A stretch of DNA of 39,078 nt from a virus (lineage: Duplodnaviria; Heunggongvirae; Uroviricota; Caudoviricetes). Location of the stretch: IMG/VR virus record IMGVR_UViG_2711768071_000018, one strand, 5' to 3'. Positions 33,497 to 36,517 of this stretch are shown here, one piece after another. The position numbers and the translations under genes are program-made. The notes below the pieces were generated by a model. That model saw nothing but the letters and a program-made list of their open reading frames with translations. It was not told the origin of the DNA and searched no databases. Numbering within the stretch: position 1 is the stretch's first letter; every line of letters begins with the position of its first letter.

Positions 33497-33974
33497 CGAA
33501 TTTCTCCCGTGTACAGGAACAGAGTTAAAAAGCCGGAACCGGAATCAAATCACAGGATGACCATCTGCCAGTGGCTGGTCGTAAAAAAAAGGCCGCGCCA
33601 TGCGCAGCCGGAAATAAAGGGATAACGATGATAGTTTGAGAAAAACAGAAATAACACTTTTGTGGCAAAGCATGGTGCCGGGTGCCTCCCGGTGAATTCA
33701 GTACCAGCACCTGAATCCGCGATTATCCCATATACCTACTCGCTGATTGCCCCTCCGCACAGGGGGATTCACCATGCAGAAGTGTTTTTAATAAACAGCA
33801 AACAAAAAAATCAAGCATTATGCAGGCTGTTTCTTTTTATCACCGGCCACAGCAATACCACAATGCCGCAGACCAGCACCCCATCCGCCAGCACCGACAT
33901 GATTCTGCTGGTGAAATCCACCATCACCACCAGAAACAGCAGGAGTGCAGCCACAGTCAGGCGCAGTTTTACCG

Positions 33975-34407
33975 TCACAGGTGATTCTCCAGACGAAGAC
34001 CCAGAACACCGGCAATCTCTTCCAGCACCTTGCGCTCTTCCGGCTCAATTTCGCCGTCTGCCTCCGCAATGGCCACCGCCACATCCAGCACATCTTCCGC
34101 TTCACGCGTATCGTGTTTCACATCCTCGATCTCACGTAACGCCGCACGACGACCAATTTTAAAGTTCGTATCCAGCTGACCGATAATGGTTGCGCTAATC
34201 GCATTAATTTCTGACGTAAACGCGGACAGCGCAGGCTGATTACGCAGTACCTGTTCGATCTTCGCTTTCTAGGAAGCCTCACATTCACCATCTGCACAGG
34301 CCACCAGGTATGCGGCGTTAATCACCACCTGTGCCAGATCGCGTTTTTCAAACTTTTTAATTTCCGTTGCCGCTCTGCGGGCTTTTTTTACCAAAAATAC
34401 CAAACAT
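33975..34407 (-). pseudogene. TerB-like protein gene, disrupted (in-frame TAG plus apparent frameshift in an A7 tract)
   Basis: Read by eye on the minus strand: MFGIFGKK / ARRAATEIKKFEKRDLAQVVINAAYLVACADGECEAS-TAG-KAKIEQVLRN...DVLDVAVAIAEADGEIEPEERKVLEEIAGVLGL; the paired ...ADGE...E... helices are typical of the TerB family; not in the ORF track because no start codon follows the stop; coordinates approximate. Confidence 0.35.
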
Positions 34408-34576
34408 CGTGACGTTCCTTTGGGTGGGTGAGCCAACGCCCGGGAGCGATCTGCCCACAGAGAAAGTCACACTGACCACTCCGTAAGCTCACCCCCGAAA
34501 GGCTCTGTGGTTGATATGCACCGGGCGTGGCGCAGATACAAAAAAGGCCCGCCGAAGCGAGCCTGGAAAATAAGTG

Positions 34577-34653
34577 TGGCGCGTTGTAGTGGAGTCGAAC
34601 CACTGACCGATTGCTTAGAAGGCAATTGCTCTGTCCGGCTGAGCTAACAACGC
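34577..34653 (-). tRNA. argO: tRNA-Arg (anticodon UCU)
   Basis: Cloverleaf read by eye: acceptor GCGTTGT/ACAACGC, D-arm GCTC..GAGC, anticodon stem ATTGC/GCAAT with loop CTTCTAA, T-arm AGTGG-TTCGACT-CCACT, 3' GCCA; coordinates within a few bases. Confidence 0.8.
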
Positions 34654-34753
34654 AGAATACCGATAATGGACCGCCATCGGGGACCCGCCCCCGCACCAAC
34701 AACCCTGTTATGGTGTCGTCTGCTCTTCCTGATAAGCTAATGGCGGTATGTGA

Positions 34754-34829
34754 TGGTGGCCCTTGCTGGATTTGAACCAGCGACCTGGCGATTATGAGTC
34801 GCTCGCTCTCACCACTGAGCTAAAGGGCC
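34754..34829 (-). tRNA. ileZ: tRNA with CAU anticodon (Ile2-lysidine type or Met; ileZ-like)
   Basis: GGCCCTT acceptor, D-arm GCTC-AGTGGTGA-GAGC, anticodon loop CTCATAA, T-arm GCTGG-TTCAAAT-CCAGC, 3' ACCA; resembles E. coli ileX; coordinates within a few bases. Confidence 0.8.
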
Positions 34830-34878
34830 GGGACCAGAATAATAATGGTGCGAAATTAATTCTGCAATCTCATCCGTT

Positions 34879-35928
34879 TCAAACGATTAAATCCTGAACT
34901 TCCCTGACTGTCTGCTCAAAACGTTCAGTCTCCAGCTCAACGCCAATTGCACGACGCCCGAGCGCCAGTGCCGCTTTTACCGTTGAACCTGAGCCCATAA
35001 AAAAATCTGCAACCAGGTCACCCGGACGACTGCTTGCGCTGATTATCTGCTGCAGCATTTCTGCCGGTTTTTCGCACGGATGTTTCCCGGGATAGAACTG
35101 CACCGGTTTATGTGTCCACATATCCGTGTACGGCACCTGCGCCGTCACACCAAAATACCGCCGCAGATGCTTATATTCACTCTGCAGCTCCGCATACTGT
35201 CGGTTCAGAGAGGCATACGTATCCACCAGCTGGTGGTGGGGCTTTTCCAGTTCACCCCGCTGATGCTTCTCTTCTGCCACCCGGGCAAACAGTGCCTGTA
35301 ATTTCAGATAATCGCTTTCGTTCGGCAGCTGCCACTGACCGGCACTGAACCAGTGCGACACCATGTTTTTCTTTCCTGTGGCATCTGCAATCTGTTTTGC
35401 CGTTATCCCCAGGACAGCGCGCGCATCACGAAAGTAAGCAATCAGCGGGGCCATCACATGCTGTTTCAGTGCCCTACCCTTCGCCTCATACCCGGCATCT
35501 TTCGGACGATACGGCCCCTGATAATGCTCTGCGAACAGAATGCGCTCTGTGGCGGGGAAATACGCCCGCAGGCTTTCCTTGTTGCACCCGTTCCAGCGTC
35601 CGGACGGCTTTGCCCAGATGATATGGTTCAGCACGTTAAACCGCTCACGCATCATGATTTCGGTGTCAGATGCCAGACGATGGCCACAGAACAGGTAAAG
35701 ACTTCCGGCAGGTTTCAGCACCCGCCAGAACTGCGCAAGACACTGGTCCAGCCACTTCAGGTAATCTTCATCACCCGCCCACTGGTTATCCCAGCCCTCG
35801 GGTTTCACTTTGAAGTACGGCGGGTCCGTGACTATCAGGTCAACAGAATTTTCGGGTAACGACCGCATAAATTCCAGGCAGTCGGCGTTGATTAACTCAC
35901 AACTGGATATTTTTACAGTATTAAGCAT
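34879..35928 (-). CDS. DNA methyltransferase, beta-class amino-MTase (N6-adenine or N4-cytosine), orphan
   Basis: 349 aa; catalytic motif IV DPPY (LIVTDPPYF) near the N-terminus and AdoMet motif I FxGxG (DFFMGSGST) near the C-terminus; no adjacent endonuclease-like ORF. Confidence 0.85.
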   Translation of the reverse strand: MLNTVKISSCELINADCLEFMRSLPENSVDLIVTDPPYFKVKPEGWDNQWAGDEDYLKWLDQCLAQFWRVLKPAGSLYLFCGHRLASDTEIMMRERFNVLNHIIWAKPSGRWNGCNKESLRAYFPATERILFAEHYQGPYRPKDAGYEAKGRALKQHVMAPLIAYFRDARAVLGITAKQIADATGKKNMVSHWFSAGQWQLPNESDYLKLQALFARVAEEKHQRGELEKPHHQLVDTYASLNRQYAELQSEYKHLRRYFGVTAQVPYTDMWTHKPVQFYPGKHPCEKPAEMLQQIISASSRPGDLVADFFMGSGSTVKAALALGRRAIGVELETERFEQTVREVQDLIV

Positions 35929-36065
35929 GGATCATTAAGCCTGTCTCTGATAGGCTCATTCTGCTTTTGCGCAAAGCAGTGGGCCTGAGGTTTGCTTGTG
36001 AACCCAACGCATGAGCAGATGGCTGGTGGGTGCCCCTTACACCCACCAGCCGCCCATTTACCACA

Positions 36066-36092
36066 AATAAAAAAGCCTTCAGGACTGAAGGC
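36066..36092 (-). terminator. Rho-independent terminator overlapping the 3' end of the 36079-36276 gene
   Basis: Hairpin gccttcagtcctgaaggc followed by ttttttat on the minus strand; coordinates approximate. Confidence 0.5.
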
Positions 36093-36276
36093 GTCTGTAA
36101 CAACCAAACTGATAGTCTGCCAGACCCGCCATAACCAGCTGGGTCAGTATTAACTGGCAGCGTTCGCGTGAAAGGTAAGTATTCTGCGCAATCTCCCCGA
36201 CTGTCGCCGGGTCGGTAACGCTTAATTCATTAAACACCACTCTGGCGGTTTCTGTCATATCCTGCTGTTTCAGCAT
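36079..36276 (-). CDS. Small hypothetical protein (65 aa), possible helix-turn-helix
   Basis: Internal start MLKQQDMTETARVVFNELSVTDPATVGEIAQNTYLSRERCQLILTQLVMAGLADY...; sits between the tR'-like terminator and the methyltransferase. Confidence 0.35.
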   Translation of the reverse strand: MLKQQDMTETARVVFNELSVTDPATVGEIAQNTYLSRERCQLILTQLVMAGLADYQFGCYRRLQS

Positions 36277-36398
36277 GTCTTTTTCCCTTTTCCGGTTAAC
36301 GTGACACACCAATAACTCTTGTCGAAAAAGCCAGCAACCTGAAAGAACGGTATTAATAACCACCAGCGAATTTATTGCGCTGCTGTATATTACGGACA

Positions 36399-36420
36399 CA
36401 AAAAAACCACCTTCCGGTGG
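36399..36420 (-). terminator. tR'-like rho-independent terminator ~100 nt downstream of the Q-like gene
   Basis: Hairpin ccaccggaaggtgg followed by tttttttgtg on the minus strand; coordinates approximate. Confidence 0.55.
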
Positions 36421-36517
36421 CTTCCTTGTGCGAAAAAACTTGCATTTCGCCTCGCGATACAGCTTTGCGAAGCTTACAGGAATTCAAGCTGTTTCTGCGT
36501 AAAAAAGCAAGCTTTTT
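36421..36517 (-). promoter_or_regulatory. Putative late promoter PR' / qut region
   Basis: Positional only: the interval between the Q-like stop and the tR'-like terminator, where lambdoid phages carry PR' and qut; I could not assign -35/-10 hexamers confidently. Confidence 0.3.

Follow-up and report, generated by a model that had tools for sequence, protein, structure and literature searches.

Why should a prophage without Shiga toxin (Stx) genes keep a late region arranged like that of an Stx-converting phage, with a solitary DNA methyltransferase gene and two tRNA genes ahead of the place where such phages carry stx? The question is raised by the segment 33497-36517 of the viral sequence IMGVR_UViG_2711768071_000018 (Caudoviricetes; 39,078 nucleotides, the whole of which is referred to here as the window). 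The segment is very probably the late-regulatory cargo region, of the Stx-phage type, of an stx-negative lambdoid prophage in an Escherichia coli strain of the kind that carries the enterocyte effacement locus (LEE).

Gene order and the toxin position

A clear family assignment was obtained for every protein of the segment. As judged from the open reading frames (ORFs), Pfam, PHROGs and the sequence itself, the (-) strand carries the genes for RusA and a Q-like antiterminator, a tR'-like terminator, an ORF of 65 amino acids (aa), the methyltransferase gene, tRNA(CAU) and tRNA-Arg(UCU), followed by a terminator, a TerB-family gene, a DUF3927 gene, a match to the STnc100 small RNA (sRNA), a nanS-p-like esterase gene and the holin, lysozyme and Rz genes (Table 1). 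The order from Q to S-R-Rz that had been read in the initial annotation was thus confirmed. Intrinsic terminators after the Q-proximal transcript, the 65-aa ORF, the tRNAs and the sRNA split this cargo into units, and the opposite end of the prophage carries the type III effector genes espJ, cif, nleH and a gene of the nleG family.

Table 1. Features of the late region and their coordinates in the window
Feature	Position	Strand	Evidence or remarks
RusA	37057-37416	(-)	ORFs, Pfam, PHROGs
Q-like late antiterminator, DUF1133 family	36518-37060	(-)	Pfam, PHROGs
tR'-like intrinsic terminator	36396-36431	(-)	Hairpin, core CCACCggaaGGTGG then T7; closes the short interval after Q
Conserved ORF, 65 aa	36079-36276	(-)	PHROG 331, 2e-37
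Intrinsic terminator over the stop codon of the 65-aa ORF	36075-36092	(-)	GCCTTCAGTCCTGAAGGC + TTTTTT
Solitary beta-class N6-adenine/N4-cytosine DNA methyltransferase	34879-35928	(-)	PF01555 N6_N4_Mtase, 1.2e-43
Candidate sigma-70 promoter of the tRNA cluster	34839-34867	(-)	TTGCAG, 17 nt, TATTAT
tRNA-Ile2 type, anticodon CAU, ileZ	34754-34829	(-)	ARAGORN; Rfam 72.5 bits
argN relic (third Stx-phage tRNA, anticodon UCG)	34667-34746	(-)	Alignments
tRNA-Arg, anticodon UCU, argO type, AGA decoder	34577-34653	(-)	ARAGORN; Rfam 67.3 bits
Intrinsic terminator closing the tRNA cluster	34545-34564	(-)	AGGCTCGCTTCGGCGGGCCT + TTTTTT
tciA/TerB-family pseudogene at the stx position	33975-34407	(-)	Comparison with the intact PPyecE_EH1910 gene
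DUF3927/TciB-like small membrane protein, intact	33811-33978	(-)	PF13064, 3e-17; PHROG 1470, 6e-30
STnc100/PasD-family prophage sRNA	33583-33806	(-)	RF02076; Rfam match 33634-33806
nanS-p-like sialate O-acetylesterase gene	31646-33496	(-)	Pfam DUF1737 + SASA + DUF6645
Lysis cassette	30062-31199	(-)	ORFs and annotation of homologous loci
Holin S	30993-31199	(-)	ORF
Lysozyme R	30496-30993	(-)	ORF
Rz with embedded Rz1	30062-30511	(-)	ORF

Matches to the segment were found in 389 phage records, of which the majority are named as Stx-converting and none covers 80% of it. The synteny with Stx phages that had been proposed initially was borne out by the Stx2a phage Stx2_EH1910 (LC567834, 933W type), which has the same gene order as the window and is 92.5% identical to it over 34518-36408. 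This homology runs from just after the tRNA terminator (34518) to the inside of the tR'-like hairpin (36408); it is nil over the slot, which holds stx2AB in the phage, and patchy again in the sRNA region. The order shared by the two comprises rusA, Q, the 65-aa ORF, the methylase, ileZ, argO, the slot, the STnc100 sRNA, the nanS-p/yjhS esterase, the holin and the endolysin. In contrast, the slot of the window (33811-34544) gave no stx2AB match in the alignment with this phage and holds a tciA pseudogene and tciB; argN is only a relic in the window; no iraM-like gene is present; and the 822-nt quuQ of the phage is unrelated to the DUF1133-type Q (180 aa) and the Q-proximal transcript of the window, for which no counterpart was found in Stx phages. 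The order rusA-Q-methylase-tRNAs-stxAB-yjhS-lysis given for Stx phages in the legend of Fig. 5 of PMC3491183 matches that of the segment. By the presence of stxAB or by its Q allele the prophage would not be classed as an Stx-converting phage, whereas its late gene order and homology do fit one.

Some match to the segment was found in 3,494 of the 5,426 complete E. coli genomes, and at least 238 carry the whole stx-less segment, counted at 80% or more coverage. Since these genomes, together with public phage records, carry the stx-less TerB/DUF3927 version, the layout is common and already annotated; the toxin-less late region is a known element in a known configuration that has already been described. 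Being a late region of the kind usual in lambdoid prophages of the Stx type, it carries little weight as a discovery, but it illustrates cleanly how the toxin position behaves as an exchangeable cassette between conserved RNA genes.

Three further loci were compared. The prophage at ~2.174 Mb of the O103:H2 strain 12009 (NC_013353), 89.6% identical over the whole segment, shares the DUF1133 Q, RusA, the 65-aa ORF, the methyltransferase, the tRNA cluster, the TerB-family gene, DUF3927, the STnc100-family sRNA and the esterase; it differs in that none of the three tRNAs is missing and the TerB gene is intact. Phage phiP27 (AJ298298, Stx2e) has the methylase, the 65-aa ORF and the same two tRNAs, annotated ileZ and argO, with an argN relic in a 101-nt spacer, but it carries stx2e in the slot, other Q and lysis genes, and no nanS-p. 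The stx-negative prophage PPyecE_EH1910 (LC567835) shares the slot with TciA/TerB-like and DUF3927 genes, the STnc100-family sRNA, the methylase and an esterase 97.9% identical to that of the window. In contrast to the window, its TerB gene is intact, an AgvB sRNA (RF02702) lies next to STnc100 on the opposite strand, and the place of the tRNAs is taken by a toxin-antitoxin-like pair ('plasmid stabilization protein' plus a transcriptional regulator; positions 5045-5740 of that locus, L003).

In the window the gene at the stx position is dead. In tciA there is one base too many in an A-rich stretch near the start (GGTAAAAAAAG, where the intact homologue has CAA-AAAGAAAA), so that the ATG is no longer in frame, and GAG has become TAG at 34271-34269; the TerB-like gene of near-identical strains is flagged 'internal stop' by PGAP. 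The intact homologue matches PHROG 632 'tellurite resistance' (2e-70), and a single table entry was all that was found on TciA in the literature. The initial annotation had allowed the toxin slot only a decayed TerB-like gene. The decay was verified; the slot is not limited to it, because the intact DUF3927/TciB-like gene, whose start overlaps the tciA stop (GTGA), and the STnc100-family sRNA are also there.

The score of this sRNA was 101.5 bits (gathering score 47). Its core structure is like that of STnc100 (RF02076), but the model's 3' terminator hairpin finds no match, and a different, probable terminator lies 25 nt beyond the match, at 33591-33609 + T8. A member of the family flanks the 3' side of the slot in all four loci tested (the window, 3843-4058 of the Stx2a phage locus L002, 3944-4134 of L003, and 1638-1810 of L011). 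In the Stx2a phage it follows stx2B directly on the 3' side, and in the non-Stx prophages it lies 3' of DUF3927. STnc100/PasD RNAs are abundant Hfq-bound sRNAs in enteropathogenic E. coli (EPEC) and adjoin esterase genes in Stx-type prophages (bioRxiv 10.64898/2026.05.13.724894); PasD2 of EPEC E2348/69 occupies the same place, in a lambdoid prophage between Q and a sialate esterase gene. Taken together, these comparisons indicate that the toxin position is an exchangeable cassette between tRNA-Arg with its terminator and the STnc100-family sRNA, occupied here by a tciA-tciB moron with tciA inactivated. Weak Rfam hits in the segment to P26, asX2, rpsB sRNA and, antisense to a tRNA, Plastid-ycf2 did not reach the respective gathering scores and were disregarded.

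The nanS-p-like gene is inactivated as well. Base-by-base comparison with loci L004 and L005 revealed a CAG to TAG change at codon 181 (32954-32956), which is lacking in the two closest genomes, where the nanS-p-like genes are intact. Lesions are present in tciA, the nanS-p-like gene and the tail fibre gene, and the prophage as a whole is decaying; the methyltransferase gene, the 65-aa ORF, DUF3927 and both tRNAs are still intact. The tail fibre gene (~5377-8037) is split by an insertion with the reading frame of an IstB-like ATPase of the IS21 family, and a fibre segment is duplicated on both sides of it (5979-6323 and 7320-7664 hold identical overlapping ORFs of 114 aa).

The tRNA genes and the argN relic

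ARAGORN returned exactly two tRNA genes in the whole 39-kb window and none further. Rfam, whose tRNA model has a gathering score of 29, agreed with it on the genes and on the anticodons, both as listed in the initial annotation, and PGAP labels the two genes tRNA-Ile and tRNA-Arg in near-identical genomes. The tRNA with anticodon CAU is identical to ileZ of the Stx2a phage at 76 of 76 positions and, on alignment, is far nearer to ileX of K-12 than to either metT or metU. It shares with ileX the acceptor pairs C4-G69 and C5-G68, which are TilS determinants. The alignment with ileX and metT ruled out an elongator tRNA-Met. Given its identity to ileZ, its closeness to ileX and its unlikeness to metT, this tRNA is presumed, as had been proposed, to be an AUA decoder of the lysidine-dependent type. 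The tRNA with anticodon UCU matches the Stx2a phage copy at 74 of 77 positions and is clearly unlike K-12 argU. In its T stem, both partners of one C-G pair have been exchanged to give G-C, a compensatory substitution that preserves pairing.

Other phages are known to have tRNAs that evade defences directed at tRNA, and colicin D targets tRNA-Arg. The two tRNAs might serve as counter-defence, standing in for those of the host after cleavage by anticodon nucleases or colicins, and the substantial difference between the phage tRNA-Arg(UCU) and host argU outside the anticodon loop would be in agreement with such a role, as would the annotation of the adjoining tciAB as colicin-resistance-related (PHROG 1470). 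Nevertheless, the anticodon stem-loop of ileZ is nearly identical to that of host ileX, so that ileZ would not escape an anticodon-arm nuclease; no tRNA nuclease or defence gene was found beside the cluster, where the PADLOC hits are methyltransferase models only; and the choice of decoders for exactly AUA and AGA agrees with the codon bias that the cargo shows, described below. We consider the counter-defence role very improbable.

The 100-nt gap between ileZ and argO is filled by a relic of argN, in which the acceptor arm, the D arm and the 3' end are retained, the anticodon arm has been replaced and the T loop is damaged. This spacer was rejected as an unusual functional tRNA, since ARAGORN and Rfam were silent even at E <= 1, the fold was no better than that of shuffled sequences (z = -1.5), the T loop shows damage, and an Stx2c phage has a relic of another kind at this place. 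The remodelled relic is common to phiP27, whereas the Stx2c phage has another, deleted one. Two different relics indicate repeated loss of argN, with ileZ and argO always kept. In strain 14EC007, the closest genome and otherwise 100% identical (L005, 4366-5477), an IS421 element lies inside the spacer with the relic, between ileZ and argO.

Are the tRNAs, the methyltransferase and the sRNA then functionless passengers, retained because the module was recently recombined from an Stx-type phage into a decaying prophage? The frameshift and nonsense codon of tciA, the nonsense codon of nanS-p, the argN relic and the tail fibre gene with its insertion sequence (IS) fragment are what such passengers would be expected to accompany, and so is the IS421 between the two tRNAs of a relative. 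However, across four loci ileZ is 98% and argO 96.5% identical, whereas the flanks are 77-85% identical, and the T-stem substitution of argO preserves pairing. In addition, argN decays whereas ileZ and argO never do in the five loci examined, and the methyltransferase gene, the 65-aa ORF and DUF3927 are still intact. That the two tRNAs are selectively conserved weakens the case for pure hitchhiking, which we regard as quite improbable.

The cluster is also bracketed by candidate signals of its own. A promoter-like element lies upstream, its -10 hexamer ending 9 nt before the 5' end of the first tRNA. This hexamer is invariant in 4/4 aligned loci; three of the four also retain the -35 hexamer, which has one substitution (TTGCGG) in the O103 prophage, and the spacer varies. 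We infer from the sequence that the element is a candidate tRNA-cluster promoter. The terminator that closes the cluster is conserved in the Stx2a, phiP27 and O103 loci. A conserved promoter-like element and a terminator around the tRNAs suggest that they are expressed independently.

Codon usage and the possible role of the tRNAs

By analogy with lambda and Stx phages, the Q-like protein would load onto RNA polymerase at PR' on induction and allow read-through of all the terminators of the segment. The product would be one late transcript comprising the 65-aa ORF, the methyltransferase, the tRNAs, tciAB, the sRNA, the esterase, the lysis genes and the structural genes. In the lysogen, the terminators would insulate the units, and only those with promoters of their own, probably the tRNA pair and the sRNA, would be made. 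The two tRNAs would then enlarge the capacity to decode AGA and, once host TilS has introduced lysidine, AUA. Of the E. coli sense codons that are common in A/T-rich, horizontally acquired genes, these two are the rarest. Genes of this kind are stx2AB in the Stx phages and, in the present prophage, the effector genes and some of the late genes. The rare-codon idea for phage tRNAs is said to come from the 933W and Sakai genome papers.

In agreement with the enrichment predicted initially for the effector genes, AGA and AUA are 4.5-4.6 times commoner in these than in the structural genes (p = 3e-6 for AGA and 9e-9 for ATA). The low-GC end of the prophage encodes EspJ and NleH (NCBIfam equivalogs) as well as Cif and a DUF1076 protein of the NleG family (PGAP, 99.9% identical loci), and its five genes contain 16.7 AGA and 24.6 ATA per 1000 codons. 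The corresponding values are 14.7 and 36.8 for stx2AB of the Stx2a phage, 9.1 and 9.7 for the late-region genes, 3.7 and 5.3 for 22 structural genes, and 0.6 and 3.6 for a 15-gene sample of the K-12 core. The specific match of the tRNAs to the effector codons did not hold up, in that the enrichment is compositional: all A/T-ending codons rise too. Within synonymous families eleven codons are more enriched than ATA, and CTA, CAA and TTA are enriched at least as much as AGA. GC content at third codon positions is 0.32 in the effector genes vs 0.61 in the structural genes.

The tRNAs might instead serve the phage's own late genes in lytic growth rather than effectors expressed in the lysogen, two roles that overlap and are both compatible with the data. 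The location of the tRNAs inside the Q-dependent late transcript would agree with the lytic role, as would the AGA and ATA frequencies of the late region, which are 2-3 times those of the structural genes and well above the K-12 core sample. However, the structural genes, which account for the bulk of late protein synthesis, rarely use these codons, and the conserved promoter-like element and dedicated terminator that bracket the tRNAs point to independent expression. Service to the late genes is thus possible, if doubtful.

The supply of tRNAs to effector genes in trans would extend the lysogenic part of the scheme given above. According to this proposal, ileZ and argO are kept by selection in toxin-less prophages, the dose of tRNA made from their own promoter sets the output of A/T-rich effectors encoded in trans (by other prophages and the LEE), argN is dispensable, and the slot is swapped by recombination between tRNA-Arg and the STnc100-family sRNA. 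Several observations count against the overall scheme of expression and tRNA supply given above. The promoter of the tRNAs would be a consensus match below the threshold of the sigma-70 scan, which gave no promoter on the (-) strand of the segment and did not locate PR'. The effector genes show equal or greater enrichment of the codons CTA, CAA, TTA, GCT and ACA, for which no tRNA is supplied. The tRNAs are not indispensable, because a toxin-antitoxin-like pair replaces them in PPyecE_EH1910, and the pseudogenes (tciA, nanS-p, tail fibre) imply that the retention of some parts may be mere recency. Finally, the effector cassette and the late region are 1.3 Mb apart in Z1322HEC0010 and ~0.45 Mb apart in PS1Thumoskin9; the two modules lie on different prophages in other strains and therefore assort independently. 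The data fit a role of the tRNAs in supply in trans without singling it out, and we put the in-trans proposal as a whole forward only tentatively, as a rather unlikely chain of steps.

The two modules, the espJ-nleG-cif-nleH cassette and the late region, were found at two separate places in each of two genomes, 4.157 and 2.850 Mb in NZ_CP148746.1 and 1.882 and 2.327 Mb in NZ_CP180607.1. Loci with three tRNAs, with two and a relic, and with none provide a natural comparison for the effect of prophage tRNAs on the translation of A/T-rich virulence genes. In the literature, nothing usable was found on ileZ, argN or argO, and a paper on phage SfI was the only one found on rare codons and prophage tRNAs.

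The Q allele, the methyltransferase and other features

The Q-like gene was assigned by DUF1133 (1e-110), by Phage_antitermQ (PF06530; 35.1 bits vs a cut-off of 26) and by PHROG 753 'anti-termination protein Q-like' (4e-74), the same label being carried by PHROGs 14465, 79 and 943; PGAP places the start of the homologue 12 nt further in. Searched against 50,697 phage records, the Q/PR' region matched five, all from other E. coli phages at 75-76% identity, and no Stx phage was among them. The Q gene and Q-proximal transcript (36409-37074) thus form an allele with no close match, the best being 76% in non-Stx phages, and on either side of it the regions of rusA/DUF968 and of the methylase share 92-96% identity with the Stx2a phage. 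The Q allele appears not to be of a kind known from deposited Stx phages, and its recombination joint seems to fall in the tR' hairpin. The 133-nt interval between Q and the terminator (36385-36517) folds at -49.1 kcal/mol (z = -5.24).

The 65-aa ORF, annotated also in the Stx2a phage, in phiP27 and in non-Stx prophages, bears a weak winged-helix/TrmB resemblance in Pfam (TrmB E = 0.004, below the cut-off). In the methyltransferase, the motif DPPY is found near the N terminus of the translation (TDPPYF) and FxGxG near the C terminus (FFMGSGST); PADLOC assigned it to MTase_II (1e-161), and its relatives in the PDB are M.RsrI, CcrM, M.MboIIA and DpnA. Its description as an orphan enzyme in the initial annotation was upheld by the PF01555 match and by the neighbourhood (65-aa ORF and tRNAs), in which no restriction gene was found and PADLOC detected methyltransferase models only. 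By analogy with lambda and Stx phages, such a solitary enzyme would methylate progeny DNA and might shield it from restriction in the next host; the literature on methylomes yielded no target sequence for it.

Elsewhere in the window, sodC, encoding a Cu/Zn superoxide dismutase, was placed at ~12369-12896 (+) by collinear alignment with L004. Its place would be between J and the genes for tail assembly, on the strand opposite to theirs, and it looks like another moron. At the edge of the window, just upstream of the DUF968/RusA/Q block, is the type I toxin gene hokD (38923-39078, (-)), which in related genomes is followed by an IS481 transposase gene.

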